DNA of 48,166 nucleotides from a virus (taxonomy: Duplodnaviria; Heunggongvirae; Uroviricota; Caudoviricetes): IMG/VR virus record IMGVR_UViG_2639762987_000003; one strand, written 5' to 3'. The notes below the pieces were generated by a model, which was given only the letters and a program-made list of their open reading frames with translations, searched no databases and was not told the DNA's origin. The first letter of the stretch is position 1. Each line of letters opens with the position of its first letter. The position numbers and the translations under genes were made by a program. Shown here in pieces: positions 8,322 through 46,185 of the stretch.

Positions 8322-8833
8322 TGATGGCCCCCGTCATTTCTGGTGCTTTTCACCGTGCGGCTTCTTAAAAACCTGCCATCACGAACAACAGACACTTCTC
8401 GTTTACCCAACCTCATTTCACGGCGGTAACATTCAGAAAATGCCTCGTCCGGCATCATATAAATGCGACGCTTCGCCTCCGTATCCAGAAGGGAACGGCT
8501 TGGGGTTACATATAAGAACGACTCATCAATAGGGACAAAACCACGAGCAAGAATTGCTGGCAGAATACCAGGAAGAACGCAGAAAACAGCTCCACGATGC
8601 AGCAACATCTGGTACTCCATGACCTCCGTAATCCCCGTAACGACTGTTACGGTGTCACGTCTGTTACGGCTGGCAACCAGTCGCTGCACACCTCCAATTT
8701 TCTGCTCTACAGATAGACGTTTGCTATCGTTATCAATATGATCGATAACAAATCCTTTAATCGTTTGATCAAGGTAGTGCACCACCTGCGATTGAATCTG
8801 GTGATTATCACCAAAGAAGGCCAGAATCATCAT
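8318..8833 (-). CDS. Hypothetical protein
   Basis: 171-aa ORF, stop/start overlaps with neighbours. Confidence 0.45.
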   Translation of the reverse strand: MMILAFFGDNHQIQSQVVHYLDQTIKGFVIDHIDNDSKRLSVEQKIGGVQRLVASRNRRDTVTVVTGITEVMEYQMLLHRGAVFCVLPGILPAILARGFVPIDESFLYVTPSRSLLDTEAKRRIYMMPDEAFSECYRREMRLGKREVSVVRDGRFLRSRTVKSTRNDGGHQ

Positions 8834-9324
8834 TCCTCAAGCCTCCCAAGTGCTGAACGCCGGGCGTTGCTAATCTCCTTATGAATCAGCTCGATATCGC
8901 TGGAATCTTTATTCTTAAGCTCCAGCACGGTAATCGCATCACGAACCTCTGAAACGGTTACGTGTGAGTGTTTCCAGCGAGCAATGAATCGCGGACCGCG
9001 TAGATTGCAACGCTCCGCAGGCATCCCCAGCTCAGAGAAAACCGCTTTCAGCCTTGATAAGCAGTTAACAGGGAGATTCCCTTTGATCTTGTTCTGCCGA
9101 ACCGATGTGCCATCGCTACGCTGGCGCTGACGTTCGGCAAAATCTGCCGCCCATTGCTGGACGTTAATCCGGCCTTCCGAATACGCCACCAGCAGCGTCA
9201 GGTTATCCGCACGAGGGAATCTCTCGAAGCGATACCAGGCACCAATCAGTGATGACGTAAAGCAAAACTTTCTGGCAACACCAATTTGGCCTCCATTTTC
9301 GTCAACCCACTCCTGAAAGGTCAT
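8830..9324 (-). CDS. First gene of the operon divergent from the repressor; possible DNA-binding regulator
   Basis: 164-aa ORF transcribed divergently from the CI-like repressor across an operator-rich region. Confidence 0.4.
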   Translation of the reverse strand: MTFQEWVDENGGQIGVARKFCFTSSLIGAWYRFERFPRADNLTLLVAYSEGRINVQQWAADFAERQRQRSDGTSVRQNKIKGNLPVNCLSRLKAVFSELGMPAERCNLRGPRFIARWKHSHVTVSEVRDAITVLELKNKDSSDIELIHKEISNARRSALGRLEE

Positions 9325-9343
9325 TTAACGAACTCCAGTTAAA

Positions 9344-9461
9344 ACCACGATACGTGGTATTAAAACCACATATCGTGAGTTTTTCAATGGGCGAAACAAA
9401 AAATAACCTTCTATTTGTGGTCCACCTCTCGTCTTACCATGTGAAAACCACTAAATGTGGT
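9344..9461. promoter_or_regulatory. Operator cluster: ACCAC-N5-GTGGT palindromes at 9344-9358 and 9447-9461, imperfect site at 9365-9379
   Basis: Perfect inverted-repeat half-sites with 5-bp spacer in the divergent promoter region; the 9447 site abuts a TATAAA -10-like element before the repressor start. Confidence 0.65.
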
Positions 9462-9498
9462 AATGTATAAATAACCCACCATTCACGATTGATGAGAC

Positions 9499-10155
9499 AT
9501 GAAAAGCAACGACGAGAACATCAAGAAAGAAATAGGTCTGCGCATTCAGACTCTACGGAAACAATCCGGCATGACTGCCGGAGATCTCCAGCAAGTCACT
9601 GGAATAGGCTTAAGCACCTTGCAGAACTATGAGGCCGGATTAAGACAACCATCTATACCTGCCATCAAGAAAATCGCGCACGCCCTGAAAGCATCAGCGC
9701 CTTATATCGCGTGCTTAACAGATAACCCGTTCCCACCCCAGAATACTAACGCTCCTGTTATTCCTGGGCTTGTAGCTATAAAAAATGACATAGCATCGCA
9801 CGCCGGAGAAAAGCCAGTGCTGGCGATAGAACAGGAGATTCTACGAAGCAAGAACATCAACCCATCGTCTCTGTCAGTTCTCCAGAGCAACGATGAGTTA
9901 ATGTCACCAACAATATCCCCAGGCTCCCAAGTCCTGATTAATACAGACGATACAGAGATTCATGAGGGGATCTATGCCCTTGAAGACAGAAATGGCCTGG
10001 TTGTTTTGAGGCACTGTAGAGTCATACCGGGTGACAATGCTGTTATGCTGTCAACCGAAAGGGATGCTGAAATGAACACTAAGCATCTGAATAACGAGGA
10101 ATTTAAGCGTTATAAAGTTCTTGGCCGCGTAGTTAGTGTTGTCAACTGGTTATGA
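9499..10155 (+). CDS. CI-like repressor (N-terminal HTH, C-terminal LexA/S24-like fold)
   Basis: HTH segment (MTAGDLQQVTGIGLSTLQNYEAG) and C-terminal domain alignable by eye to lambda CI; the Ser of the S24 'SM' motif appears replaced (DELMSPT). Confidence 0.7.
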   Translation: MKSNDENIKKEIGLRIQTLRKQSGMTAGDLQQVTGIGLSTLQNYEAGLRQPSIPAIKKIAHALKASAPYIACLTDNPFPPQNTNAPVIPGLVAIKNDIASHAGEKPVLAIEQEILRSKNINPSSLSVLQSNDELMSPTISPGSQVLINTDDTEIHEGIYALEDRNGLVVLRHCRVIPGDNAVMLSTERDAEMNTKHLNNEEFKRYKVLGRVVSVVNWL

Positions 10156-10197
10156 TACACAGCACGGCGAAAGCCGTGCATTTCTACGCTCAAAAAA

Positions 10198-10212
10198 ACC
10201 ACATTTTGTGGT
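10198..10212. promoter_or_regulatory. ACCAC-N5-GTGGT operator site next to a TTGACA -35-like hexamer
   Basis: accacattttgtggt immediately upstream of TTGACA, before the 10248 gene. Confidence 0.55.
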
Positions 10213-10247
10213 TTTGACAACATGTAAAAGTATAAAAGAGGCTACGC

Positions 10248-10622
10248 ATGGAATTACATACAGCCAATAAAAACGAAACTCTGATCACTGCTGGAATCGA
10301 AATCCAAGCGTTGAACATAGCGATTGAGTGTATGTTATGCCAAATCATTGATAATGAGAAAGATATCGACTGGATAGAATCTATCCTTCATCTGGCATCA
10401 GAACAAAAAGTCTGCCTCAAAACGGCCTTACAATACGATGTGCCAGCGGTATCGAAGCTGTGCCAGCCATTGATGGCATATAACAGGGCTATTATTTCTG
10501 TATGCCTCATGATTCTTGATGAAACCCCCCCTCTTAGCGACCGCTCAGAAGCTGCTCTAACCCTCTCACGTAAACAGCGACAGCTAGCAAATCAACTGAT
10601 ATCAACGATAGCTGACCTCTGA
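10248..10622 (+). CDS. Hypothetical protein
   Basis: 124-aa ORF downstream of the repressor, followed by a terminator. Confidence 0.45.
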   Translation: MELHTANKNETLITAGIEIQALNIAIECMLCQIIDNEKDIDWIESILHLASEQKVCLKTALQYDVPAVSKLCQPLMAYNRAIISVCLMILDETPPLSDRSEAALTLSRKQRQLANQLISTIADL

Positions 10623-10627
10623 CTGCA

Positions 10628-10650
10628 AGCGGGCTAACGCCCGCTTATAT
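10628..10650 (+). terminator. Rho-independent terminator-like hairpin
   Basis: agcgggc-taac-gcccgct followed by a T/A-rich stretch just after the 10248..10622 stop. Confidence 0.5.
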
Positions 10651-10750
10651 GATTATAGATTTATATAATTATATAAAACGCTTTTCATCAGCCAAAAAGT
10701 TGGTTATGCTTACCTCGTTCTATAAATATAGATTTATAGAATTATATAAC
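10651..10750. promoter_or_regulatory. Two AT-rich palindrome elements upstream of parA (perfect TATAATTATA at 10664-10673; variant TAGAATTATA at 10737-10746)
   Basis: Same motif family as at 23-32, 1159-1168, 6901-6910, 11429-11438 and 16866-16875. Confidence 0.55.
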
Positions 10751-10772
10751 CAAACACATGGAGCCTCGACAA

Positions 10773-11426
10773 ATGACTATCTCTGTAGGTATTTTCAACG
10801 GAAAAGGCGGCGTAACCAAATCAACAATTGCCCGTGCTTTAGCAGTTGCTTATGCAAAGGCTGGCTGGAATGTATGCCTGATCGATATGGATGTGCTTAA
10901 CGGAACGGTAACGCGTTGGGTACAACGCAGAATGGCCAACAATATCGAACCAGCAATCGCGGCGCAGCCGTGCGGCACACCATCACAAGTCCAGAAAATC
11001 ATCGAATCAGAAGTATACGACCTGGTTATCGTCGATGGCGGTGCCTACGCATCTGAATCAGTACCGAAGCTATCTGAATTTCTGGATATGGTTATTTTGC
11101 CAACCCGATTCTCTACCGATGACCTGGAAACCACCGTTAACACTGCTCACGGCATCGTTAAAAAGGGTGTACCAATCAAGAAAATTTGCATGGTGTTTTC
11201 CGGCGCGGCTGAAAACGAAGCTGACTATATTGAAGCCCAAGAGTACCTGGCTAATACGCCATACTTTGTTGTCGATAAGTACATTCCCCACAAGCCAGCT
11301 CTGAGCAAAGCTCAGGATAAGGGCTTAAGCCTCATTGAGTGCTCATACGTTGCGCCACGCAAAAAGGCAGACGACGTTATTCAGGGGATTATCAACCAGC
11401 TTGAGGCTCTGACTACTGCCGCATAA
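10773..11426 (+). CDS. parA: ParA-family partition ATPase (small type Ib)
   Basis: Deviant Walker A motif GKGGVTKST near the N-terminus; start set at the ATG 9 nt after GGAG. Confidence 0.8.
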   Translation: MTISVGIFNGKGGVTKSTIARALAVAYAKAGWNVCLIDMDVLNGTVTRWVQRRMANNIEPAIAAQPCGTPSQVQKIIESEVYDLVIVDGGAYASESVPKLSEFLDMVILPTRFSTDDLETTVNTAHGIVKKGVPIKKICMVFSGAAENEADYIEAQEYLANTPYFVVDKYIPHKPALSKAQDKGLSLIECSYVAPRKKADDVIQGIINQLEALTTAA

Positions 11427-11457
11427 TATATAATTATAGTTTTATAGATTTATATAA
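11421..11457. promoter_or_regulatory. AT-rich palindrome element (TATAATTATA at 11429-11438) between parA and the small downstream gene
   Basis: Motif family member followed by tatagatttatata. Confidence 0.5.
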
Positions 11458-11469
11458 GAGGGGATACAC

Positions 11470-11718
11470 ATGGCCGCACCATCAAAACCACCAAAGAAGA
11501 ACAGCAAAGGCGTACCGCCATCGATCGAACAACCGCAGGTTTTCGACCCGACTGAAACGCCAACCAGAACCAAATCAGGTGGGGCACAAATGGCGTTTAA
11601 CGTCGACCCTGAATTTAAACGCGAGTACAAAACGTTCGCCAGCTCAATGGATATGTCATTGAAAGAAGTGCTGACAAAGTCTTTTGAGTTACTCAAGGCT
11701 CAATACAACCAGAAGTAA
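11470..11718 (+). CDS. Small ParG-like (putative ribbon-helix-helix) partition partner
   Basis: 82-aa protein with a Pro/Lys-rich flexible N-terminus, directly after parA; fold assignment is inferred from size and position. Confidence 0.45.
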   Translation: MAAPSKPPKKNSKGVPPSIEQPQVFDPTETPTRTKSGGAQMAFNVDPEFKREYKTFASSMDMSLKEVLTKSFELLKAQYNQK

Positions 11719-11780
11719 GAGAAGGTGACGGCCTCCAGCGCCAACTGTTGGCCGTCGCGACACAACAAGGGGAATTTGTT

Positions 11781-11930
11781 ATGTCCGAGCAACAATATAC
11801 ACGGTTACTGAAAACTCGTCTAACCGACCTCAAACGGCTGCAAGCTGGCTGCTTATTTGCCCTGCTATCCACCAGGCCAGAATGGGTACGTGAAGCAGTT
11901 CTGAAAGGCTTAATGCGCTCCAGCGTTTAA
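11781..11930 (+). CDS. Hypothetical small protein
   Basis: ATG preceded by AAGGGGAA; 49 codons. Confidence 0.35.
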   Translation: MSEQQYTRLLKTRLTDLKRLQAGCLFALLSTRPEWVREAVLKGLMRSSV

Positions 11931-11937
11931 ATTCAGC

Positions 11938-11963
11938 CATAAAAAAAGGCCCCCGAAGGGGCC
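11938..11963 (-). terminator. Rho-independent terminator for minus-strand transcription
   Basis: Stem aggcccc/ggggcct with GAA loop, followed on the minus strand by 7 U. Confidence 0.65.
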
Positions 11964-11969
11964 TAATCG

Positions 11970-12092
11970 CTACTTGCTGCTAATGTTTATCGTCACATTC
12001 AGAGCGTTATCAGTAATCTTCCAACCCTCCCCATGTGGCGTAAACAAAGCCCCAGTAACAACGATAAAAATACACATACAGTATTTTTTCAT
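11970..12092 (-). CDS. Candidate 40-aa hydrophobic peptide (possible type I toxin or small secreted peptide)
   Basis: MKKYCMCIFIVVTGALFTPHGEGWKITDNALNVTINISSK; AAGGG 8-12 nt upstream of the ATG; own terminator downstream. Confidence 0.35.
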   Translation of the reverse strand: MKKYCMCIFIVVTGALFTPHGEGWKITDNALNVTINISSK

Positions 12093-12415
12093 TGTATGGC
12101 CCTTACAGGCCGTTTCACGGCATCCCCACCGACGAAAACAACGCGAGAGCAAGCACGGCTGCTTGTGCTTGCATGTACGGCAACGGAGAATCCTCCCCTA
12201 AAGTCGGTGCCCGGGTGCGAATCGGCGGGAAGGTCCACAGGTATTTTACGATTATTTTAAGATTAGTAATAGGAAAGAAATTAAACGAAAAAACTCGTTT
12301 ATTTTCACAAAATCAGTAACCTACCCACAATCTGTGAGTTTGCAGGCACAACAAGAACCACAATTTTTTGAAGCATAATAGTGGACTATTATTACCTTTT
12401 GGGTAAAATTAACTT

Positions 12416-12516
12416 GCTGCTTGTGCTTGCGTGGTTGTTTATACAACAACGTAATGCTGAAAGGACCGCGAATCCGATCAGCACGAAAGAACCGTCCTCA
12501 ATAGGGCGGTTTTTTT
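12416..12516 (+). ncRNA. Candidate ~100-nt sRNA, 5' 15-nt complementary to the leader of the 11970..12092 mRNA
   Basis: TAAAAT -10-like element at 12404-12409; 15-mer gctgcttgtgcttgc at 12416-12430 is identical to 12158-12172; two internal hairpins; terminator 12491-12516. Confidence 0.35.
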
Positions 12517-12535
12517 GTTTCTGCCTACCAATAAA

Positions 12536-12550
12536 CCCACGCTATGTGGT
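12536..12550. promoter_or_regulatory. Operator-like CCAC-N5-GTGG site upstream of the antirepressor leader
   Basis: cccacgctatgtggt, followed by TAAAAT (12560-12565) and TTGACA (12575-12580). Confidence 0.5.
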
Positions 12551-12585
12551 TGTCTCTGTTAAAATCCCGCCGTATTGACATGAAT

Positions 12586-12682
12586 GCGCCATTGGTGGAC
12601 ACTTTCCGAGCCGTAGCAAAATCTACGGTCGGGATTGGAACCCCGTGGACACAATGGCGCATACCGCGTTAGCGGTTTTTTT
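12586..12682 (+). ncRNA. Candidate structured regulatory RNA domain (P1 c4-like antisense RNA analogue)
   Basis: 9-bp closing stem gcgccattg/caatggcgc (12586-12594 with 12652-12660) encloses a hairpin and the element GAUUGGAACC; ends with a short hairpin plus 7 T. Confidence 0.35.
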
Positions 12683-12848
12683 ATGCGTAAAGCACTGCTA
12701 CACCCAAATTATGGTGGGGCGTGCGGGGGAGTCGTAAGACTCGCCGGTTCGTCATTGTGTCCGGTAGTTCCAACCCTGCACGTCTCACCACCCAATGATT
12801 GGAACCTGACGGTGGTGAGTATCCTTAACCTTTAAGGGAATCATCACA

Positions 12849-13040
12849 ATGACAAACCTACCCCATGACTATTACGTCAACCTCGTAAAGATCCTTCTCA
12901 AGAAAGCCTCATACGCCGATAAATTCCGCCTGGCTGAAATCATCGAGCGCGAAGCTATGCGCATCGCCAGCAACGATAACGCTGTTTCTGACGCAAAAAT
13001 CTCCCTCGTAACCAAAGTAGTTATGGGAGGTGCAAAATGA
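12849..13040 (+). CDS. Small protein upstream of and overlapping ant (icd-like position)
   Basis: 63-aa ORF with AAGGGA 9 nt upstream; its stop overlaps the ant start. Confidence 0.4.
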   Translation: MTNLPHDYYVNLVKILLKKASYADKFRLAEIIEREAMRIASNDNAVSDAKISLVTKVVMGGAK

Positions 13041-14179
13041 AAACGCTTCCGACCGTTAACACCCTACAGCCTATCCTGCATAACCAGATCCCCGTTATCA
13101 CTAGTGAACTTCTGGCGCAGTTATACGGAACAAAAATCAAAAACATTTCTGATAACTTTCTGAACAACACGACGCGATTCGTAGCCGGAAAGCATTACTT
13201 TAAAATTGAAAAAAACGAATTACGCGAGTTCAAGAACAGACCCGAAACAATCGGGTTAGTTGGTAAAAATGCCCGCTCCCTAATTCTCTGGACCGAACGC
13301 GGGGCTGCACGTCACGCTAAAATGCTCGAAACCGATCAGGCGTGGGATGTATTCGAACGGCTGGAAGACTGCTACTTCAACCAGAACGCGCAAACGGCCG
13401 CGACCGTAACCGTCTCGCCAAACAATGCTCGTGAGGTTGTCGATACGCTCAACGCCAAACCGATGTTTTACATTAAGGTGTGCAATAACGAGCCACTCAC
13501 AACCTCAGCCGATGTTGCCCAAGCATTCAGCACCACAAACAATTCCATCGTTATGGCCATCGATGCGTTACGCATTCCTCGCACAGCTGCGGCGCGTCAT
13601 TTCTTTAAAGAGCAACGACCGTTGGAAGGAAGCGACCGCGAAATAACAATCTATCGCATGACAAAAGACGGATTTACCTTGCTCATGGAGAGTATCGACG
13701 GTCCAGGCGTGAAAGATATCAAGCTGGCCTACATTGAAGCCTTTAACGCTATCAGCAGCGTGTTAAAAACACAGTACGAGCGTGATCTGGCTAAACGACT
13801 GTACCAGGAAAAAACGATTATCCGCGCGGCAACAGAGCATAATCGGCTATTAACGGAACCGAACTACAGGAAGGAACTAATAAAGGAGTTTGACAAGGCA
13901 ACAGGGAAAACCAAAGCGGCGCTAAATCTGCCAGCAATGACTCAGGAAAATGTGATATCAGCCTTACTTCTTGATCTGCTCAGAAACGCCAGAGCACTTA
14001 TCAGCTTTGACGAAAATCTGAACCCTCAGCTCAAACTACTACCACCGACAGGCAAAGTAGTCGACCAAGCTGATCACAACAGCATACTCAGCGTACTGGA
14101 TGCAAACCTGCCAGCCAGGACACTACAGGAACTGATAAAAATATCTGCGGATAAACTGGCCGCAGGTGCAAAACCATAA
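13037..14179 (+). CDS. Antirepressor (Ant-like)
   Basis: 380-aa protein whose N-terminal region resembles antirepressor N-terminal domains (ITSELLAQLYGTK...RFVAGKHYFKI...LWTERGAARHAKML). Confidence 0.7.
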   Translation: MKTLPTVNTLQPILHNQIPVITSELLAQLYGTKIKNISDNFLNNTTRFVAGKHYFKIEKNELREFKNRPETIGLVGKNARSLILWTERGAARHAKMLETDQAWDVFERLEDCYFNQNAQTAATVTVSPNNAREVVDTLNAKPMFYIKVCNNEPLTTSADVAQAFSTTNNSIVMAIDALRIPRTAAARHFFKEQRPLEGSDREITIYRMTKDGFTLLMESIDGPGVKDIKLAYIEAFNAISSVLKTQYERDLAKRLYQEKTIIRAATEHNRLLTEPNYRKELIKEFDKATGKTKAALNLPAMTQENVISALLLDLLRNARALISFDENLNPQLKLLPPTGKVVDQADHNSILSVLDANLPARTLQELIKISADKLAAGAKP

Positions 14180-14213
14180 AACAAAGCGCCCGATTTGGGC
14201 GCTTCTTCAATTC

Positions 14214-14849
14214 TTAATATTTCGGTGTAATCAGTAGCGATACATGCCCTGATTTGTCACGAGAAACGTAATACTCGCCTCTCTTAGTCTTGAACTCAGC
14301 TTTCTGCATATCAGATTTAACAATCTGCTCTAACTGCGCAATCACGGTGTCTCTTTCACTTGACGCATCCAAGACTTCAACTGCTACGGCCATAGAAAGC
14401 AAGGAATCAGAGTTAGGCTTGGATACTCGCCATAATAACTCAGAAATCTTTCCATCCTTATCAACTCTAGCCCGACCGTTAACAGATGAGTTGATGGCAA
14501 ATTCAACGGTATTGTTACCTTGTTTAACAGACTTAATTCTTATAGTGGAGGTGGCTTTTCCTGATGTAGCGATGCCTTCAAGGTCATCATTATATAACTG
14601 CTTAAACTTATCTACGGTCACACCATCAAAAGCAGCTCCGGTGGTAGCCGTAGTGCTGGAGTCTTCTGGGATCAAGGTCACAGCCGCAAGAGTATTAACA
14701 ACTACAAAAGTAGCAATCCCGAGAAAGCCACTCACTAAAACAGCTTTGAACCTACTACCAGAAGACGAGGCACATTGTTTCCGATATGCGCCACGAACTA
14801 CGAAGAAACACAAAATCAGGCTAATAATAAACGCCACCAGCATCCCCAT
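14214..14849 (-). CDS. Hypothetical membrane-anchored protein (candidate exclusion or defence function)
   Basis: 211-aa ORF with two N-terminal hydrophobic helices and a Ser/Thr-rich extracytoplasmic part. Confidence 0.45.
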   Translation of the reverse strand: MGMLVAFIISLILCFFVVRGAYRKQCASSSGSRFKAVLVSGFLGIATFVVVNTLAAVTLIPEDSSTTATTGAAFDGVTVDKFKQLYNDDLEGIATSGKATSTIRIKSVKQGNNTVEFAINSSVNGRARVDKDGKISELLWRVSKPNSDSLLSMAVAVEVLDASSERDTVIAQLEQIVKSDMQKAEFKTKRGEYYVSRDKSGHVSLLITPKY

Positions 14850-15412
14850 AGAAATCTCCTTTTAGATATAAGGGTAAAGCAATATCGTATTAGATCTTCC
14901 TTTAGACACAACCCCCCCTCCCCCCATACAGGGTGCCCTTTACCGGAGTTCCGGCCCCTTCTCAAAAGCATCAAAAAAAGCTCGAGATCGAGTACCGGAA
15001 CTCATGCCACCAGATAGCTCCACATCGTTTCCAATGCTTCGCCGCCGTGTGCGCCCTGTGGCCCACAATCATGCCATTGGTCGTCTGATATACCTTCTTC
15101 TGCTCATAGAGCACAGGCGAGTTGTCGCACTCCTGCCTTTCTCAGACTCGACTTAGTTTAGATCGCTGTTCCTGGCTTGCGTCAGCACACTTTCCCCTTG
15201 TACGCATACCCGCGCGCCACTTCGCCCAAAAACACCGAACCCAACGAAGTGGCAAAGACAACGACGCGAGCGTGAGTCTGAAATGGGCACCAGTAAAAAA
15301 GGGGTTGCAGGCGCAAAAAGATTTGATTATCTTTAGACGCAAGAAAGCCGCCCCAATCAAGAGGTGTCTTTTTAAATCCAGCCTACCAAGCAAGATTTAA
15401 ATTTCAGACTGA

Positions 15413-15437
15413 AAACCGCCCGGCAAGGCGGTTTTTG
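15413..15437. terminator. Bidirectional rho-independent terminator
   Basis: accgcc-cggcaa-ggcggt flanked by A-run upstream and T-run downstream; follows the minus-strand HTH gene. Confidence 0.65.
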
Positions 15438-15505
15438 TCTTTCTGGCGCTTACATTACACCACCATAAAACGATCCGTAAAGGATCATTTGATCCCTTGT
15501 TCCAA

Positions 15506-15757
15506 TTATGACGACACTTTAACCTTTTCCCATACAAGGGTTTGCAGCCTTAACAGAATCGCATCTTTATCAAGGTGTGAAAGATCCTTAACCATATCGT
15601 CAAACGACAGAACGCGAATGGCCATCTCCATGACACTCGGCGGCCCCCCCTTCTCATATCGCTTATATGTAGCCAACGATATCCCAAACTCTTCGGCGGC
15701 TCGCTCCTGCGTCCAGTTCATCCCACGACGCCATAATTTCAATTCGTAACCCGTCAT
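15506..15757 (-). CDS. HTH (Cro/C1-type) transcriptional regulator
   Basis: 83-aa protein with HTH-like segment (MNWTQERAAEEFGISLATYKRYEKG). Confidence 0.55.
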   Translation of the reverse strand: MTGYELKLWRRGMNWTQERAAEEFGISLATYKRYEKGGPPSVMEMAIRVLSFDDMVKDLSHLDKDAILLRLQTLVWEKVKVSS

Positions 15758-15858
15758 TACATCCTCTACCTTTCCCTAGATATTCAATAAATTAGACATA
15801 GCCACTCACGACAAAATAAGATGTATTAACAATCCAATCTTTAGGCTTTAGGTAAAAA

Positions 15859-16284
15859 ATGAGTTCATCTGCTTTTGTCACCGTGGTCACTGGTGTAAGT
15901 GTTTTTGTTCTAGGCCAACTCATCGTCAAAGGAGCTATTGAGCCTTACATTTCATTCAGGGAACAACTAGGGAAAATATCCAATCTGTTATTGTGTAACC
16001 AAGCAAAAATAGTGAATCCTGGCTCGAACTTAAAGCCAGAAATCATTCATGATCTAAAAGATTCCGCAGCACAGTTAATGGCGAAATATTCCACTTTACC
16101 TTTCTATATCAAAAAGTTACATATCGGCTTTCGTCTTGTTCCATCAGCCACCGAGATTCTTGGTGCAGCTCAAAATTTGAACTATATAGCATCAATACAT
16201 GAAGGTAAGACTGGGGAAAATCCATCTAAGCATCTCGAAGAGATTGGCCATATGCTCAAAATACCAACTACCTATTCAAGCTAA
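15859..16284 (+). CDS. Hypothetical protein with N-terminal transmembrane helix
   Basis: 141-aa ORF in an AT-rich segment; only plus-strand gene in this block. Confidence 0.4.
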   Translation: MSSSAFVTVVTGVSVFVLGQLIVKGAIEPYISFREQLGKISNLLLCNQAKIVNPGSNLKPEIIHDLKDSAAQLMAKYSTLPFYIKKLHIGFRLVPSATEILGAAQNLNYIASIHEGKTGENPSKHLEEIGHMLKIPTTYSS

Positions 16285-16387
16285 CCCAATGTAAGTTATC
16301 GGCTTGCCCCACAATAAGTTATCTATCTTCAAACGCCCCCTATATTAACACTCGCAAAGTGTCAAAATGACACTTTGCGCATTGTGT

Positions 16388-16768
16388 TTACTTAACGAGG
16401 AATAAAAATGGTTTATCGTTCGGCGGTGTAATCGGGGCTGGCTCGCTTTTGCTCATGCGATCAGTGTACCAGGCCAACTCCTTGTCAAAGTAAGCCTGAT
16501 TAAAATAGGCCATGAATGTGGTTTCAAATCCATAACGACCGCTAATACGCAGCATCTGATTGCCGTTCTCTGTTTCCAGATATACCTGGGCACGTTCCTG
16601 ATTCTCCTTCAGCCAGGTTAAAGCCTCATCGCACGAGGACAAACGATACTCATCATCGTAGCCGTCATCGATGCGGCTTGAAGAAGAACGGCAAATCACG
16701 CCAACAGAACCAGCCAGGATAGTTTGAATTTTAAGGAAAGCGTTTTTGCGGATTTTAATCATGCTCAT
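16388..16768 (-). CDS. Hypothetical protein, first gene behind promoter cassette B
   Basis: 126-aa ORF whose ATG lies 8 nt after the cassette's GGAG. Confidence 0.5.
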   Translation of the reverse strand: MSMIKIRKNAFLKIQTILAGSVGVICRSSSSRIDDGYDDEYRLSSCDEALTWLKENQERAQVYLETENGNQMLRISGRYGFETTFMAYFNQAYFDKELAWYTDRMSKSEPAPITPPNDKPFLFLVK

Positions 16769-16775
16769 CGGGTTA

Positions 16776-16877
16776 TCTCCGGTTTAACCAGGGCGGGTAT
16801 CGCTCGGTTTCGGGTATAACCATAGGAAATTTTTTCCCACCTGTAAAGCACTTTTTATATAAATCTATAATTATATA
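16776..16877 (-). promoter_or_regulatory. Promoter-leader cassette copy B (identical to copy A over 102 bp)
   Basis: Same -35 TTTACA / -10 TATGGT / leader / GGAG as copy A; contains TATAATTATA at 16866-16875. Confidence 0.6.
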
Positions 16878-16889
16878 ATTCTATGAGCA

Positions 16890-16916
16890 CAAAAAAGCCC
16901 CTTTGCAACAGGGGCT
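16890..16916 (-). terminator. Rho-independent terminator ending the higBA transcript
   Basis: On the minus strand, stem agcccct/aggggct with 7-nt loop followed by 6 U. Confidence 0.6.
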
Positions 16917-16931
16917 TATCATTCGTTCTGA

Positions 16932-17231
16932 TCAGATGTTAAACGCTATTCGTTTTCCTGTGGGAAGCTCAACATCCAGGCTTAATTTGCCTCCCATAGC
17001 TTCAACGTAACGCTTTAATGTCGCCAGCTTTAAATCATTTCCGCGCTGCTCCAGCTTTGTTACTGCTGGCTGGCTTATACCCATCGCCTCAGCAACCTGT
17101 TTTTGTGATAACTGGAGTTCTTCACGCATCATCTGCAAGCCGACCTCAAGAATCATCTCATCTGCCATTTCTTTAATTCGCGCCTGGCTTTCAGGTGAAC
17201 GGCTGGCAATCACCTCATCTAATGTTCTCAT
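16932..17231 (-). CDS. higA: HigA-like HTH antitoxin
   Basis: 99-aa HTH protein (LSQKQVAEAMGISQPAVTKLEQ) immediately downstream of the toxin gene, 1-nt overlap. Confidence 0.65.
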   Translation of the reverse strand: MRTLDEVIASRSPESQARIKEMADEMILEVGLQMMREELQLSQKQVAEAMGISQPAVTKLEQRGNDLKLATLKRYVEAMGGKLSLDVELPTGKRIAFNI

Positions 17232-17584
17232 TACTTGCTCTCCAGTGTGTTCAGATGTGCTGCAAACTCATCCTCAGCTATACGCACCAGTTTTTCATAA
17301 AACCGTTTATCGTTACTTTTGTCTCCTGCACAAAGAACGATGGCCCGGCGAATCGGATCGAACGCATAAAAGGCTCTGATCGGACGGCCAGAAAACTGAA
17401 CGCGAAGCTCTTTCATATTTTTGTACCGAGAACCTTTTACGGTATCGGCATATGGCCTGGGTAACTCAGGTCCGTAAACCTGTAGCTTTTTCAAATCAGC
17501 CAAAACCTTTTCCTGAAGAGCGTCTTCTTGCTCATTTAGCCAGTCGTCAAATCGCTGGCTAAAAAGTACCGTCCACATGCTCAA
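17231..17584 (-). CDS. higB: HigB/RelE-family toxin (Gp49-like addiction-module killer)
   Basis: 117-aa protein with segments typical of HigB-like toxins (PIRAFYAFDPIRRAIVLCAGDKSNDKRFYEKL); toxin-first gene order. Confidence 0.65.
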   Translation of the reverse strand: MSMWTVLFSQRFDDWLNEQEDALQEKVLADLKKLQVYGPELPRPYADTVKGSRYKNMKELRVQFSGRPIRAFYAFDPIRRAIVLCAGDKSNDKRFYEKLVRIAEDEFAAHLNTLESK

Positions 17585-17587
17585 TCC

Positions 17588-17633
17588 TATAACCTGTAGT
17601 TTATATCACTAACTATATAACCTGTGGGTTATA
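17588..17633. promoter_or_regulatory. Putative higBA operator: direct repeat TATAACCTGT (17588, 17616) with TATAACC/GGTTATA inverted arms
   Basis: Repeats lie directly upstream of the toxin start. Confidence 0.4.
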
Positions 17634-17822
17634 ATTTCAAGAAAAACGGGGCTATTTAACATAATGGACGTTATCGGCACCACCGGATCACCGTTCATTG
17701 TCGGATCTAAAAAATCCGCTCAAAAGATCATGTTTTCCTGGGCGTTTTCCACCGTTTTTTATGTTGCTTATTTGTTAATGAAATCTCGTTTTCAGTTTCG
17801 CCTCATTTTCGACGCGAAAGCC

Positions 17823-18113
17823 CTATTTTTGTGACTTTACTCCTGGCATATGGACTTCCCAGCGACGAATCCCCATAGCTGCGCAAAAATCAGCCACATA
17901 ATTCAATCCCGCCCATTCGCGGATACCACCACGGGCTTTTTCAATGAAAACGGCAATCCCTTTTTTATTGAGAGCAAAAAGCCGCCAGCTTTTTGTCACT
18001 TCGTCCTGGGTAGCCACAACACAAGTGAAAGCTCCCATGCGATACAGGTCCAAGAACTCTTTGCGTGTTTTGCGTACAAGTTCCATAACAAACCTCATAT
18101 TTGCATGTTTCAA
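17823..18113 (-). CDS. Hypothetical protein
   Basis: 96-aa ORF with start/stop overlap to the upstream gene. Confidence 0.4.
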   Translation of the reverse strand: MKHANMRFVMELVRKTRKEFLDLYRMGAFTCVVATQDEVTKSWRLFALNKKGIAVFIEKARGGIREWAGLNYVADFCAAMGIRRWEVHMPGVKSQK

Positions 18114-18409
18114 ACATCTGTTTTGTTATCAATGAAGATTAACCCTAACCCAGCGAAGTAACACAGCAGCGCCCAGGCTGCATACGGAATGCTGGATCTG
18201 GATGTGGACTCCTTTAACATCTGCCAGTTGCGAACATTGCGACTATCTTTTAAGCCTAGTTTTTTGGCCAACTGCGAGCCACTCATTCCGGTGAGGCCAA
18301 TGACTGCCCGAACTTCTCCACATGTAGGAGATTCCCATTCATCCGCTTTTTTTAAACAAGCCGGATTCAACATTTTTAAAACAGTATCTTTATCCATAAC
18401 CATCTCCAT
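18110..18409 (-). CDS. Hypothetical HTH-containing protein
   Basis: 99-aa ORF with HTH-like segment (MSGSQLAKKLGLKDSRNVRNWQ); directly downstream of the origin-like region. Confidence 0.4.
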   Translation of the reverse strand: MEMVMDKDTVLKMLNPACLKKADEWESPTCGEVRAVIGLTGMSGSQLAKKLGLKDSRNVRNWQMLKESTSRSSIPYAAWALLCYFAGLGLIFIDNKTDV

Positions 18410-18779
18410 TTATTATATCTACGATGGTAGGAAATCTTTTCCTATGTGGCAATAGAAATTTACTACATTGCGTATAAGACAAGTTTTCTATGTCTAATAG
18501 GAAATGATGTTTCTTACGTTTTATCGCGTTCTGATGGCTACTGTGTGCGTATTTCTCGACGTTTATTGATAAGGCTCGCCCCTTCCTCCTGCAAAGCCCG
18601 GCCGTAGGCCTTATTTCGGCCTTATATAAATTGATTTTGTATAGTTCGAAACGCGCCGTTTCGAAAAGGATGATCAGGCTGCTCCATGCCTCCGGCAAGT
18701 GCCGGAGGAGGTATATTTGAGCGTAGCGACTCGAACCGGCGCGAGCTTTAGCTCGCTGCAAGGGCGAACATATTCACAG

Positions 18780-19040
18780 GCAAAGCCTGCGTAAGTTAAA
18801 TAAAGAAAGTCTTAATAAAAGAAAGTGATTTTGCATTTATTTGTTTAGTGCATCTATTATAAAAAACCATTTGCATATACATATCAAAACTGTGGATAAC
18901 TTTATTAGCCGATGCCTGTAAAGGCGATATTTTTGCTGTGTTCCGGTTTAGAGAAAATTAATTTAGATTGTTTTTTGAACAGATATTTTATTGCGACGTA
19001 GATAATCCTCCGGTAAAACCGGATTCATCATTCAGGTGGG
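18780..19040. other. Candidate plasmid origin region downstream of repA (AT-rich, DnaA box 18891-18899)
   Basis: TTATCCACA (as tgtggataa on the plus strand), repeated ATTTGCAT motifs and a ccggtaaaaccgg hairpin; GC-rich hairpins follow at 18590-18780. Confidence 0.45.
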
Positions 19041-19889
19041 TTAATGTTGGAGTGATTTCCAGGTCTTTCTTAACCTGTTATAACGCTGCTCAACGAGGGA
19101 TCGTAAATATGCAAGGTCAGCTCCAGGATACATGCCATCAGCAAATTCCTGGCTAACCTCTCTAGTGATTTGATGACGAAGTTCGGCCTCTCCCTTTTCC
19201 CGAACAAGACGCGCAGCTCTCTCCGCTGCTTTCTGTTTTGCCTTTATCTCTCTGGCCGTCTTCCTCTGATGCCATACATTCTCCATCTGCTCCTGAATAA
19301 CAATACGCTTATAATCAGCCTCCGTTATCGCTTTTTTAAGCCGTTCGCTATTCTTCGCATTGAAGTAATTAAGTTTCTGGCTAACCGCACGTCTCCATGC
19401 TTGTTCAGTAATACCAACGGTTTCCAGCAGTTGATCACGAATCTCTATTTTCGCTGGCCAATACTGTTTATTCACCCGATCCCAGCGACGTTCATAATCA
19501 ATAAAACCTAACGCTTTCAGTTGCGACAACGCCCTTGTACAGCGCGTTATAGACTTGTTCCCAGCTTCGGATACGGTAGACAGGCCGCAAAAATCAGCCA
19601 ACGCCTCAGCACTGGCCAGAACCCGCTTAGAAATGATGTTTACATGGTGCAAAATCGCAGCGATCACAGCATTAATCGCCCGACGACGATGCTCGTTTAT
19701 CCGGCGCTTCCGCTCTGACGGTTGATTAACGTAGAACGCAACCTCACACGTAAGATCACGCCCATTAATGCGCTGTAAAGCATCAGATAACACCAGCGGC
19801 AGCTTGTGCGTATGGTGCTTTGGAGGCTGGAACTCCGGCGACAAATTACAAACGTAAGCTGAACGTAGAGACGGCATTGGTCTATCCAT
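19041..19889 (-). CDS. repA: IncFII-type RepA1-like replication initiator
   Basis: Segment KSITRCTRALSQLKALGFIDYE matches the RepA1 core as recalled; start set at Met 44 of the track ORF to give about 282 aa. Confidence 0.75.
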   Translation of the reverse strand: MDRPMPSLRSAYVCNLSPEFQPPKHHTHKLPLVLSDALQRINGRDLTCEVAFYVNQPSERKRRINEHRRRAINAVIAAILHHVNIISKRVLASAEALADFCGLSTVSEAGNKSITRCTRALSQLKALGFIDYERRWDRVNKQYWPAKIEIRDQLLETVGITEQAWRRAVSQKLNYFNAKNSERLKKAITEADYKRIVIQEQMENVWHQRKTAREIKAKQKAAERAARLVREKGEAELRHQITREVSQEFADGMYPGADLAYLRSLVEQRYNRLRKTWKSLQH

Positions 19890-19899
19890 ATGTTCGCTC

Positions 19900-20010
19900 T
19901 TGCGTCCACGGAAAACCAACGTATAATGGGAGTTGTCGAGGCGCCCATGGTTAGTTGTTGGTTTTCCGTGGATGTCGCAAGAAGCCCGCAGATTTATCTG
20001 CGGGCTTTTT
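19900..20010 (+). ncRNA. Candidate CopA-like antisense RNA over the repA leader
   Basis: 15-bp inverted repeat (19906-19920 with 19957-19971) followed by a perfect rho-independent terminator (19983-20010), both on the strand opposite to repA. Confidence 0.35.
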
Positions 20011-20054
20011 GTTTCCATATCTGGTCACTTTCCAACCAGACACCCACAATCATA

Positions 20055-20069
20055 ACCACGTTACGTGGT
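20055..20069. promoter_or_regulatory. ACCAC-N5-GTGGT operator site upstream of the repA leader
   Basis: accacgttacgtggt; same palindrome family as the repressor operators. Confidence 0.55.
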
Positions 20070-20484
20070 TTTAAGAGAACTCTACCACAACACTTTCGGT
20101 CATGCACGAAGTCTCTCACTGATCGAACGATAATCCACCAGTAAAAGGATCTAAATTGGATCTCGTTTTGCGAGCATCATACTACTGGCCTAACTCCAGT
20201 CAATGATTCCCAGCCAGAAACCTGCGGTAAACTCATCGTTCAGCAATATGCTGTCCGGCTTCAAAGATAAGGTGACATCATCCCTTAACAGCGCGGCCAG
20301 TTCAGTTAAAGGGCTGTTCTGATTTAATGCTGGCCACTCATACCTGGTAATAAGTGGTCAGTCTTAACACTCACCATTTGATTGCACCCGTGTTGACGAT
20401 TTGTTACTGGATATCAGACACGCTGGATAGCCAGTAGAAACATACCATTAAAATTATTACAATAATTGGTCACATGATTATCTT

Positions 20485-21629: not shown

Positions 21630-24475
21630 TATGCAAGCCTCACAATATAATTAAATGCGATGTTTTTAACGGTGTTTTCCGCGTTACCAGCAGCGTTAAC
21701 GGTGATGGTGTGTCCATGTGAACCAATCTTAACAGAGTGCGTATGAGCGCCAATACCAACAGTGTGTGCATGTGCCCCAGCACTTGTAGCGGTACCTGAT
21801 ACTGAGTGGGTATGTGCGCCAGAAGAAGGCACAGTTCCATTCCCCACCACCGTGCCACTTGATGAACCATCCAGCCAGTCGAAATTCATACCGCCACTGT
21901 TTGGTCTCCTTAATGGAACGGTATGAGTATGTGCGCCAGCACTATTTGCAGTACCAGATACATTGTGGGTATGTGCACCTGTGTTATTCGTTGATTTAGT
22001 ACCGTAATCAAACGACGATGTGGTTTTCGTACCCAAATCCGTACTGGATGCGCTGGCACTGTGGGTGTGCGATTTAATGCCATCCTGTTCCTGAGACAAT
22101 ACGGCCCGACCACTGGCGGGTTTGCCCTTGATTGTCCAGCCGCGCATATCTGGAATAACACCAGAAGGATAGGCAATAGCCAGTTTCGGATATGCTGCCT
22201 TATCAAACGTCTGCCCCTGCATGATTGCATAACCTGCAGGTGGCGTATCTGATGGCCACGGCAGCGGAACACCTGGCGGAAACGCTTCAATATTTGCCGA
22301 GCCGTCAAATTTTACGCCGTTAATTGTCCTTGCCGTTTTCAGCTTTGTTGCTGTAGCAGCATTGCCGGATAGTTCGCCTGAAAGACCACCGCTGAATGTC
22401 TGTTTCGCCATCCATGTCTGAGCTTCGTCGATAATTGGCACACGTCTTGTCGTGATCGTGCGGCTTCCCGGATTTCCTGAAATGCGAACCATAAAAAAGC
22501 GGTAGTTGGCTTTACTTACAGTGCTGCGCCATACATGCATTGAGCGTCCCGAACCAGAATCATCACTCGGACCGACTGAGATGTTTATCAGGTTGCCATC
22601 AATGACGCCCCAGTCCATACCGTCGGGAATATTGGTCATGTTATCAAGCCGAACGGTTATCAGACTGCCCGGCACAAAATCGTAGGTCTGCCAGTCCAGG
22701 CTGGTGAGCTTTGCCACAGCACCGCCGATACCCAGATTCAGGGGAAGTGAATACGAGGTGTAGACTTCCCGCCATTCGCTCCATGAGCTGCCGGTAAAGA
22801 CGCGCTCAAAGGTGCGGCCTTTAAGGGTTGTACCTGTTCCGGCAGTTGTATAACGCTGCCATACATTAACACCATCAAACCGCCTCAACACTTCCAGAAT
22901 GCCGAGTACAGTCACGCCGTTTCCGTCCAGTACTGGACCGTTGGTCGCTTTACCTGTAACGCTGTAAATACCTGGTGAGGTTACATCATTCAAATCACCT
23001 TCGTAATAACGACTCTCTGACTGATGACCGACTCTTAACCACGGTTCCCACTGCGGATTTGATGCATCCCAGCTTGCCGCAAGACAGCGGACATACATAT
23101 TTCCACGGCGAGTGGTATAACGTTGCGTTCTTCCATAATTTCCGCCTTCGAGGATCTCAAGCATCCCCTGAGCAAAGCCGCCTTCCTCTGGATAATTGCG
23201 TTCATATGAAGCTATAGCTGAGCTACTGTTACGCCATAAACCAAGATGCTCGGCGGCTCCAAGCGTATTCAGGTCTATAGTCGTACTCAAAGGGCGGGTA
23301 GCAGATTGAGTGTGACGCCATACGCCCCACGGACCATCAGTGCCATTCCACTTATTGGCGAGTTTACGCATGTATACATTGCCGCCTCCCGTGGTAAAGC
23401 GTTGCGTACCTGCAAAATTGCCGGCAGCAAAAACCTCAAGCACACCGACAGCATTATCTTCCGGGAAATTTTTCTCCAGTGTTGCGTTGGTGGATGTTGC
23501 TTTAGACCAGATACCTGAATAAGCCTTAACAGGACCAAACGTATTCAGATCAGCATCAAGCGGCATTTCGCCATTGTTTTTCATAAACGTCAGGCTGGTA
23601 ACGCCAACATTGTCCAGAAAAGCTGATTTATCCTGGATATCTGCACCGTTCTGATTTTTCGCCAGACGTGAATTTGCGTTGTCATTTGCTGCCTTGACCG
23701 CTTTTGGCGTTGCCGCCTGCGTTTCAGACGTACTGTTAGTGGCACTACTGAGCTGAACTATCCCTTTTTGTGCCGTGGTGGCATTCTGGGCGGTATATTT
23801 TCCGTCAGCCAGGTCATATGCAGCCTTAACAGCCTTAGGCGTCGCTGCGAGCTTTTCAGACGTGCTATTGGTGGCATTACTGAGTTGAACAATGCCTTTT
23901 GATGTTAAAGTTGCATCAGGATGATTACGTGATTGCTCATGTTTTACAATAGCTTGCTTAAGCCGCTTTGCTGAAACAGCCAGGGAATCATCTGTACCTG
24001 CATCAATTTCTTGTTCATTAGCAAATCTTGCTACTCCAACAACAGTTTCGGTTGCGGGAGGGTTAATAAACTCAACATCACCAAATGTAATGTTTTTAGT
24101 ATCAAGATTTTTAATTGCTATATCACTTGATATTAAAGCAATTGTAGAAGATGCTTTATTTATTATTACTTGTTCTTGCGAGTATACAGCAAACAATGTT
24201 CCTTTATTTGTATACAAACCTATTGTATGGACAGCATACTCATCTTTACTATCATCCTTCGCAGTTACATGAATGGTATCAGGAGAAACGACTTTGCCTC
24301 CTATTGTGGTAAGTCGCTTTATTTCATCTGTTATTTTTGTTTGTGTGGTTGATGTGGCATAATATCTACTACCTAAACCAACAGAAACGATCTCAACTTT
24401 ATTTGTTCCAGTCTTGTTGGCATTAACCAGCGCCTTACGCCCGGCGTCAGTCATCGTAAATAATAATTTACTCAC
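21629..24475 (-). CDS. Tail fibre protein
   Basis: 948-aa protein with His-rich GAH(T/A)H(S/T)V repeats at the C-terminus. Confidence 0.8.
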
Positions 24476-27604: not shown

Positions 27605-28606
27605 TTAATACCCATTAATTACTCTTCGGACATCAATCGAGGTGGTATAACCACTAGTCCCAATTGAATGCACAGCTTTCGATATAAGATATTTTCCAGA
27701 AAATGAACCGAATCCCTCCAGATTTATAGTTACACCAGCTACCAATCTGGTGTCTCCAACCAATACTAAAGATCCGGTATTTTGATATCTATTTTTAAGC
27801 CGCAAAGCAGCCTTTGCCTTACGTTTTGCTTCATCTAAATTAGCTACCAGTTTTCTTATCTTAAGATTCGACCCTTCTTCTACGGATGGATCTACCCAAG
27901 TATACGAAAGCGACTTTCTTTTTTTAGGTACGCGATATTTGCACGTGCAACTTTTATACAAATCTGTAGATTGTGTGCTAAAGCTATATCTGATTATCTC
28001 ATCAATACCTAACGTAAGCGTAGCGATAGGATCTTTTTGCTCAAACATCTCTTGAGCAAATATTATTAATTGGCTATCAGTGACCTTTAACGACAACCCT
28101 TCATCCTGGCAAAGTCGATGGAGAAATTTTAAATCGCTTTCCTCCATTTGATCTTCACGTGCATAATATGGATTACTATCACCATCAATAAGAAACAACA
28201 GTTCAAGGTTAGCTAATTTAGCTATAGAAGTTGCTATATCTTTAAGAGTTGTTTTTTCCCATGCATTACTTTTTAAATCACGTCTAATGCCTGATGAAAT
28301 AGGAACAGAAACAGCAGTTACCTCAACCACAGAAGGTGGTCCAGAGCAAGTTATGCCATCTACCTGGAATTTCCCGCACTCAAGGACGATTTGATTTATA
28401 GGCTTAAAGCTCAAATCAATAAAATCACCCTTTTTAGGTGTCCAGTCTCCAGACCATTTCCCATCATCATTTTTTAATATAATAGAAATATCATCGACCT
28501 GACCATCTTCATTATCTGTATAAGACATTGACAAAACATCAGGTGACATATGAGCGGTAATATTTACATTCTGATATATAACATCAAAAAGCGTTTTACG
28601 TAACAC
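27605..28606 (-). CDS. Tail protein, P2 gpD-like
   Basis: 333-aa protein immediately after the tape measure and X-like genes. Confidence 0.55.
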   Translation of the reverse strand: MLRKTLFDVIYQNVNITAHMSPDVLSMSYTDNEDGQVDDISIILKNDDGKWSGDWTPKKGDFIDLSFKPINQIVLECGKFQVDGITCSGPPSVVEVTAVSVPISSGIRRDLKSNAWEKTTLKDIATSIAKLANLELLFLIDGDSNPYYAREDQMEESDLKFLHRLCQDEGLSLKVTDSQLIIFAQEMFEQKDPIATLTLGIDEIIRYSFSTQSTDLYKSCTCKYRVPKKRKSLSYTWVDPSVEEGSNLKIRKLVANLDEAKRKAKAALRLKNRYQNTGSLVLVGDTRLVAGVTINLEGFGSFSGKYLISKAVHSIGTSGYTTSIDVRRVINGY

Positions 28607-45568: not shown

Positions 45569-46185
45569 ACCTCCCCAGCCAGCAATGCGGATACAAATCC
45601 GATATAGCTGCCATTATCATCAACATAACGAGACACCGCGCAGTCAAAACGATCCGCTTCCTCATCCGTTGCCGGGATTTTATGACCTCCAAATGACAGG
45701 TACTGAACTTTTACGCCTGATTTGGCCTCATCCTTCTCAAATGGGATATCCATACCCTCTGTGTCATCGTAGACCGCCGCACTCAATAAGTTATCCAGTT
45801 CGCGCTGAGTAAAACCAATTGAGTCCAGAGCAAAATCATCGGCCGCAAGATCTGCAAGCTCCGCGCTTAACAACTCTTCATCCCAACCAGCATTCAGCGG
45901 AATACGGTTGTCGGCCAGACGATATGCCTTCTTCTGATTCTCCGTTAGCCCTTCCAGAACAATGCAGGGAACCTCATCCATCCCCAACTGAGTGGCCGCA
46001 GCAATTCGACCATGACCAGCAATTACAACGTTGTTCTCGTCTATCAGGATCGGATTAGTCCATCCGTACTCCTGTATGCTGGCAACAATCTGATCTACCT
46101 GCTCCACGGAGTGTGTGCGAGCGTTCTTTTCATAACCAATCAACACAGAAAGTGGTAAAGAAACCACATTAAGATGTTTTGTCAT
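45562..46185 (-). CDS. ParB N-terminal (nuclease-like) domain protein, paralogue of 42305..42895
   Basis: 207-aa protein with the same conserved segments as 42305..42895. Confidence 0.65.
   Translation of the reverse strand: MTKHLNVVSLPLSVLIGYEKNARTHSVEQVDQIVASIQEYGWTNPILIDENNVVIAGHGRIAAATQLGMDEVPCIVLEGLTENQKKAYRLADNRIPLNAGWDEELLSAELADLAADDFALDSIGFTQRELDNLLSAAVYDDTEGMDIPFEKDEAKSGVKVQYLSFGGHKIPATDEEADRFDCAVSRYVDDNGSYIGFVSALLAGEVC

Follow-up and report, generated by a model that had tools for sequence, protein, structure and literature searches.

We propose that the ACCAC-N5-GTGGT sites conserved in a family of enterobacterial phage-plasmids are operators of the CI-like repressor, which would shut the repA promoter P2 in the lysogen until the antirepressor Ant reopens it, a reading to which we assign a probability of roughly 70%. 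The half-sites of this motif are under selection, occur far above chance and lie at conserved promoter-like elements; we infer which protein binds there, where the promoters start and how copy number responds. One switch thereby probably couples lysogeny to plasmid copy control.

The window, i.e. the whole stretch of 48,166 bp that was analysed, is approximately a complete phage-plasmid, with 99.9% identity to the E. coli plasmid p853EC2 over the 4.5 kb tested and ~96% identity to the Yersinia phage vB_YpM_39. PLSDB holds ~60 near-identical plasmids of 46-50 kb that are circular and non-mobilizable, one of them in E. coli ATCC 25922, and the phage-plasmid family is widespread in clinical E. 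coli and extends to Salmonella, Enterobacter, Citrobacter, Yokenella and Serratia. A pSLy3-like identity of the element was considered and dropped, as the pSLy3 group belongs to the SSU5 supergroup and hence to another family. Nearly all lytic genes (early, lysis, terminase, head and contractile tail) read leftward from 9324, and a minus-strand tRNA-Met (CAT) gene at 934-1009 is located among them. The region of ~9,500-20,200 forms a lysogeny and plasmid block that contains the CI-like gene, orf124, parA and a small partner gene with their own AT-rich repeats, a ryfA-like RNA, the isrK/C4 RNAs with the antirepressor, a HigB-type toxin-antitoxin pair and an IncFII-family repA. The closer relatives used for comparison were a Salmonella Weltevreden plasmid (L003, CI 65% identity), a Yokenella-type contig (L016, CI 62%), Enterobacter cloacae (L024) and Citrobacter amalonaticus (L026), and the distant ones were Serratia and related contigs (L004, L005 and L017-L020, CI ~30-36% identity). 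Profile searches of genome contigs with the CI alignment and with the alignment of the lytic gene orf164 returned zero relatives; when viral contigs were scanned with the pattern of the conserved motif in the repA leader, a single true relative emerged.

Without mismatch, ACCAC-N5-GTGGT occurs five times in the window (9344, 9447, 10198, 20055 and 28326) against 0.04 expected, a count reached in 0 of 100 shuffles, and a search allowing one mismatch adds 12536, 23102 and 46142. The extended form of the operator is AAAACCAC-N5-GTGGTTTT. Six sites are kept at matching places in the relatives, except that Oant is missing in Salmonella and Serratia; they are given here together with one further perfect match:

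9344..9358, no strand: O1, perfect operator ACCACGATACGTGGT, where leftward lytic transcription is predicted to start
9365..9379, no strand: O2, imperfect operator ACCACATATCGTGAG, 21 bp from O1
9447..9461, no strand: O3, perfect operator ACCACTAAATGTGGT, overlapping the predicted cI promoter element
10198..10212, no strand: Od, perfect operator between the cI terminator and orf124
12536..12550, no strand: Oant, CCCACGCTATGTGGT, one mismatch (CCCAC), upstream of the isrK/C4/ant promoter
20055..20069, no strand: Orep, perfect operator (ACCACGTAACGTGGT in repA sense), at ~+4 to +18 of predicted P2
28326..28340, no strand: perfect match in a tail gene, outside the system

A preliminary description of this DNA had listed the first six of these, and its site coordinates were all correct on re-scan. 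The six are indeed conserved, and the fifth perfect match, at 28326-28340, had been overlooked. The sites around cI had been called perfect or near-perfect, which holds for 9344, 9447 and 10198, all perfect, and is generous for 9365, as O2 has two mismatches (GTGAG), yet is conserved in position.

When the six sites were compared among the E. coli, Salmonella, Yokenella, Enterobacter and Citrobacter lineages, 4/60 half-site columns were variable versus 23/30 spacer columns (Fisher p = 1.5e-11). Variation thus falls mainly in the spacer and rarely in the half-sites, which is the pattern expected for the binding site of a dimer. All family members, down to a CI identity of 30%, have the immunity-region sites, in the order O1-O3 with an extra half-site, then Od after cI. 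Relatives of the Serratia type have half-palindromes only, AACCACA with a weak partner, and the binding mode may differ there.

The other matches to the motif are read as chance, because they lie in coding DNA and their half-sites are lost in close relatives. At 28326, the Yersinia phage has ACAAC and Salmonella no longer has the site, the match at 23102 is gone even in p853EC2, and the pair at 46142/46163 shows the 21-bp spacing of O1/O2, but lies within the ParB/Srx coding sequence and decays in Salmonella. There is no such site near the second HTH gene of the module (15506-15757).

In the divergent region between cI and the lytic operon (9325-9498), O1, O2, O3 and the half-site are conserved in all relatives. 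The features that surround these sites and Od are as follows:

8830..9324, minus strand: orf164 (phrog_7452), first gene of the leftward lytic operon
9382-9387 (-35 TTGAAA) and 9359-9364 (-10 TTTAAT), minus strand: putative leftward promoter, hexamers read from the sequence
9407..9421, no strand: extra half-site (CCTTCTATTTGTGGT), within a block CCT(T/C)CT.TT(T/C)GTGGT conserved in five lineages
9499..10155, plus strand: CI-like repressor of 218 aa, with HTH_3 and a LexA-like C-terminal domain
10162..10179, plus strand: terminator hairpin after cI, read from the sequence; conserved, with a T-run in relatives
10248..10622, plus strand: orf124, with its own terminator at 10623-10645

O1 is conserved in all lineages compared and varies in the spacer only, and the right half of O2 is imperfect throughout (GTGAG or GTGGG). 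O2 and two further bases make up the whole 17-bp spacer of the putative leftward promoter, and the TTG of its -35 element recurs with the same spacing in L003, L016, L024 and L026; the Serratia counterpart, TTGTCG-17-TATTTT, is placed around that group's own O2. The -10 element TTTAAT lacks an A at position 2 and is a weak match to the consensus. The half-site at 9407..9421 may be a weak fourth site. The right half of O3 overlaps a conserved extended -10 element, TGgTAATGT (9458-9466, plus strand), ahead of cI, which reads TGgTAA(T/A/G)GT across lineages, and this overlap suggests autorepression of cI. Ahead of orf124 there is a conserved TGtAAAAGT element (10223-10231), whose -35 position falls within Od. 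The leftward, cI and orf124 promoters are predictions with weak consensus matches, read from the letters themselves, and a simple consensus promoter scan listed neither these immunity-region promoters nor P2.

The only gene within reach of control by Od is orf124. A separate terminator closes orf124, and parA is served by a repeat-rich promoter region of its own, so that Od cannot regulate partition. Arrays of an AT-rich repeat with an 8-bp period (TTATAGATTTATATAA) flank parA at 10645-10757 and 11426-11465, and likely represent the partition site and an autoregulated par promoter, independent of the CI operators.

The CI-like protein has an HTH_3 domain (Pfam E 4.5e-11) and is the preferred candidate to read these sites. 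Its match to the S24 family (E 0.0018) is below the Pfam cut-off and BLASTP against lambda CI was uninformative; a MAFFT alignment was used instead, in which the C-terminus, ending in G.V...W(L), aligns with LexA and lambda CI. In the catalytic columns of the four family CIs aligned, the Ser corresponding to LexA S119 and lambda S149 is replaced by Leu and the Lys by Arg, which makes RecA-driven self-cleavage unlikely, and the protein is probably not RecA-cleavable. No LexA box was found near ant or cI. Induction probably proceeds via the antirepressor instead, and a CI without the S24 dyad on an element that carries an Ant/C4 module fits such a scheme. All relatives found, down to 31% identity, have an unchanged recognition helix, STLQNYEAG, so that repressor specificity appears constant within the sample; in keeping with this, the AACCAC half-site survives even in Serratia, with its weak second half.

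The sites could also be real and be read, all of them or the distant ones, by a protein other than CI, namely a Cro-like orf164, either by itself or sharing them with CI, with the distant sites serving a lytic-phase regulator. In all relatives orf164 is the first lytic gene and borders directly on O1; it is an equally well-placed candidate binder. Its AlphaFold model (pLDDT 87) consists of a Cro/XRE-like N-terminal part of ~60 aa and a helical C-terminal domain, and the top Foldseek matches of the N-terminus are Xfaso-1 Cro, N15 Cro, P22 Cro and C.Esp1396I, with a probability of up to 0.96, but with E > 0.7, i.e. not significant. A weak YdaS-family match and the conservation of the putative HTH residues point in the same direction; a Pfam search at normal thresholds gave no domain and no HTH match. 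The model is thus suggestive only, and orf164 may be a Cro analogue that shares the same operators. However, the Cro proteins of phiKO2 and PY54 bind one operator only and not the repA sites (PMC4997575), and it is CI that has a clear HTH_3 and a dimerisation domain, which suit a 15-bp palindrome. We therefore regard a reader other than CI as unlikely and continue with CI as the preferred binder. PDB sequence searches with CI, orf164 and orf124 found no close solved homologue.

The surroundings of Orep contain the following features:

19041..19889, minus strand: repA, IncFII RepA family (Pfam PF02387, E 1.2e-43)
19900..20012, plus strand: putative antisense (CopA-like) RNA unit, with promoter TTGCGT-16-TATAAT at 19900-19927 and a predicted transcript of ~19934-20012
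20079..20087, minus strand: predicted repA promoter P2, extended -10 TGgTAGAGT, from sequence conservation
20176..20203, minus strand: upstream repA promoter P1, TTGACT-16-TATGAT, from the promoter scan; conserved

The half-sites of Orep are identical to those of O1, O3 and Od, and the TG.TAGAGT element directly upstream of it is invariant in five lineages. The site is perfect in E. coli, Salmonella (L003), Enterobacter (L024) and Citrobacter (L026), with the spacers GTAAC, GTTGT and GATGT, and the tally over lineages is four perfect and two partial. In Serratia one half is kept, and on the other strand the site reads AAAACCACATTTCGGGGT, which is the form of that group's own operators. RepA itself is 45% identical between E. 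coli and Salmonella, and the Serratia RepA was undetected by tblastn; Orep is still kept. Together with the conserved places of the sites and the spacer-biased substitution, the retention of Orep supports the earlier proposal of one operator family shared by the immunity region, ant and repA.

The putative antisense unit covers the repA leader on the opposite strand and comprises two hairpins and a strong terminator (fold -39.2 kcal/mol, z -6). Its promoter is kept in all lineages, and an Rfam search gave no CopA match for the unit. The annotated RepA ORF of 325 aa starts at 20018, inside the terminator hairpin of the antisense RNA. Only from residue 52 onward does the ORF match the Pfam family, and in the Salmonella homologue an ATG is missing at the position of the long start, so that the true start of repA probably lies ~130-140 nt downstream of 20018, near 19889 or 19877.

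The IncFII plasmids R1 and R100 have a CopA antisense RNA and CopB (RepA2), a repressor of the inner repA promoter. For the window, it had been noted previously that the repA region is without a CopB-like ORF, and this is borne out: the stretch from P1 to repA contains no ORF of at least 42 aa on the repA strand, the longest upstream of repA being 41 aa and hence not CopB-sized, and P1 and P2 are only ~100 bp apart, which leaves the region without CopB. Orep lies where the CopB-controlled promoter would be. Within PLSDB, the DNA of this control region was found in this phage-plasmid family only.

Between P1 and P2, a pair of GATC sequences (gatccaatttagatcc, ~20125-20145, minus strand) is conserved in every lineage despite drifting surroundings, and is found at the corresponding place in L003, L004, L005 and L024. 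This pair may give Dam/SeqA-sensitive control of repA transcription.

It is conceivable that only O1-O3 and Od are functional, and that Orep and Oant are kept as an RNA hairpin, as a DnaA-box-like element or as mere hitch-hikers. Overall conservation of the repA leader is high (~78% between E. coli and Salmonella), in transcripts from P1 the palindrome could form a 5-bp hairpin, AACCACA is similar to the CCACA core of the DnaA box, and Oant is missing in several lineages. At Orep, however, the spacer has changed at 4/5 columns, and all 10 half-site bases are identical to those of the immunity operators. A hairpin would tolerate compensatory changes, of which none is seen, and in Serratia the hairpin is broken, yet the GTGGTTTT half is kept. 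The DnaA-box reading was rejected, as the sites are symmetric and the DnaA box is an asymmetric 9-mer (TTATNCACA), to which most sites match at 5-6/9 positions. In addition, the 24-bp offset of Oant from the -35 element is identical in relatives despite differing DNA between them. A function confined to the immunity region is, on this evidence, very unlikely, and we retain the reading of Orep and Oant as CI operators.

Upstream of the antirepressor gene, the elements to which Oant has to be related are the following:

12575-12580, plus strand: -35 element TTGACA of the isrK/C4/ant promoter, 24 bp downstream of Oant
12610..14179, plus strand: antirepressor operon, from Rfam and Pfam matches
12610-12682, plus strand: isrK RNA (Rfam, 65.8 bits)
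12707-12795, plus strand: C4 RNA (Rfam RF01695, 77.8 bits)
12849-13040, plus strand: 63-aa ORF, overlapping the start of ant
13037-14179, plus strand: Ant (Pfam ORF6N and Phage_pRha)

Oant is the weakest of the six sites. One mismatch is always present: the E. coli type has CCCAC, and L016, L024 and L026 have GTGAT. In these three relatives the 24-bp distance of Oant to the -35 element is retained exactly; the site is absent in the Salmonella relative L003, which has a degraded ant locus, and could not be recognised in the Serratia groups. Being centred near -67, i.e. ~67 bp upstream of the start of the main ant promoter, Oant does not overlap this promoter, which would thus not be occluded. 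By analogy, it could control a weak upstream promoter or act cooperatively; in P1, the operator Op51 reportedly controls a weak upstream promoter, P51a, of a C4/ant operon that also has a constitutive promoter.

As a side observation, isrK, C4 and the 63-aa ORF (12610-13040) make up a control cassette for the antirepressor that is like immI of P1, and L018 shows an additional match to the c4-a1b1 target model. In the most distant relatives, a perfect palindrome of a different sequence, ACAAC-N5-GTTGT, is conserved downstream of the ant region (L018 13605-13619, L019 6845-6859 and L020 13463-13477), and may be the site of another regulator.

Instead of controlling promoters, the distant sites might be architectural, with CI oligomers bridging Od, Oant or Orep with O1-O3 by looping, plasmid pairing or handcuffing, so as to tighten lytic repression or to limit replication. 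There is no convincing promoter over Od or Oant, Od and O3 are inverted copies that flank cI at a distance of 736 bp, like lambda OL-OR, and the phiKO2 repressor CB forms tetramers, perhaps octamers (PMC4997575). However, a distance of 10 kb separates Orep from the immunity region, and Orep immediately follows a conserved -10 element, where simple occlusion suffices; we hold a purely architectural role to be quite unlikely.

In the mechanism that we favour, CI would act as a dimeric HTH protein without self-cleavage that occupies the six sites in the lysogen. At O1 and O2 it would shut off the leftward promoter and with it the entire lytic programme, at O3 it would cover the cI promoter and thereby regulate its own synthesis, at Od it would limit orf124 through the promoter region of that gene, and from Oant, upstream of isrK/C4/ant, it could influence ant. 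At Orep, CI would perform the job that CopB has in R1/R100: P2 would be closed, and repA would be expressed from P1 only, with the antisense RNA as a brake. Once Ant inactivates CI, P2 and the lytic promoter would open together.

Going one step further, the prophage repressor could have taken over the CopB role altogether, making the IncFII-type replicon a low-copy replicon in the presence of CI and a lytic runaway replicon once P2 opens; this extension is tentative, and we lean somewhat against it. Here we also speculate that derepressed RepA may drive lytic replication. The genome shows no second recognisable replication initiator, only a weak primase-like PHROG match on a DUF3560 protein.

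The closest precedent is N15/phiKO2, whose prophage repressor CB, with the operators OR1-3 and OL1-2, binds two OL operators that overlap the repA promoter and lowers the copy number of the prophage (PMC4997575). This repressor is likewise without LexA-type cleavage motifs, induction occurs through an antirepressor, and the operator of N15 is a 16-bp T-A-N10-T-A motif (PMC4997575). The window element resembles N15/phiKO2 in having an immunity-type operator at a repA promoter, here a predicted one, in the absence of cleavage motifs and in the presence of an antirepressor. In contrast to N15, a linear telomere plasmid with another kind of RepA and with operators beside the immunity region, it is a circular myovirus (the related records are circular) with an IncFII-type PF02387 replicon, a putative antisense RNA, an operator 10 kb away and a different motif.

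In P1, C1 binds 22 dispersed operators and controls the lytic replicon, and its operator is asymmetric, 17 bp long, with the consensus ATTGCTCTAATAAATTT (PMC8546580). Dispersed operators on a plasmid prophage, one of them upstream of a C4-RNA/antirepressor operon, are common to P1 and the window element. However, C1 is unrelated to the HTH_3 CI-like protein, its asymmetric 17-bp operator differs from the 15-bp palindrome, and it controls the lytic replicon repL and not the plasmid repA.

With R1/R100 the window element shares a PF02387 RepA, two predicted tandem promoters and a predicted repressor site at the inner promoter, and it has a putative countertranscript of the leader, but it has no copB ORF, carries a prophage operator at the inner promoter, and its antisense RNA has no Rfam CopA match. 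Lambda is similar in the order of lytic operon, O1/O2, O3, cI, terminator and further operator, and in palindromic operators two helical turns (21 bp) apart; it differs in that the window CI is without the catalytic Ser/Lys, the Cro candidate is a two-domain protein of 164 aa, and the element is an extrachromosomal plasmid.

Given the N15/phiKO2 CB and P1 C1 precedents, the principle is already known. The literature searched contained no paper on the operators of this phage-plasmid family, and a link between a prophage repressor and repA on a CopB-less IncFII-type replicon, 10 kb from the immunity region, was not found there. Phage-plasmids must reconcile stable low-copy inheritance with burst replication, and the link found in N15 is a prophage repressor acting on repA. 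The family studied here appears to reach the N15 solution on an unrelated IncFII-type replicon, with an immunity operator at the place of CopB. If confirmed, this would provide a simple, testable model that couples prophage induction to plasmid copy number, would account for the ways in which such elements are linked by incompatibility and immunity, and would imply that copy-control modules can be rewired through the swap of a single operator.

Two further observations concern the lysogeny and plasmid block as a whole. Between the par genes and the ant operon, a strong match to the ryfA RNA (11942-12238, minus strand; 141.8 bits versus a gathering score of 80) is conserved in L016 (12437-12732). 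In enterobacteria, ryfA-type loci encode small toxic peptides, and by analogy this locus may be a type I toxin-antitoxin addiction module. In addition, the cI-orf124-parA-ant-repA module is combined with P2-like myovirus genes in the window and in L004, and with lambda-like siphovirus structural genes in a plasmid of Serratia sp. JSRIV006 (L005). The occurrence of the same module in myovirus and siphovirus genomes points to a lysogeny and plasmid cassette that has been exchanged between phage types.
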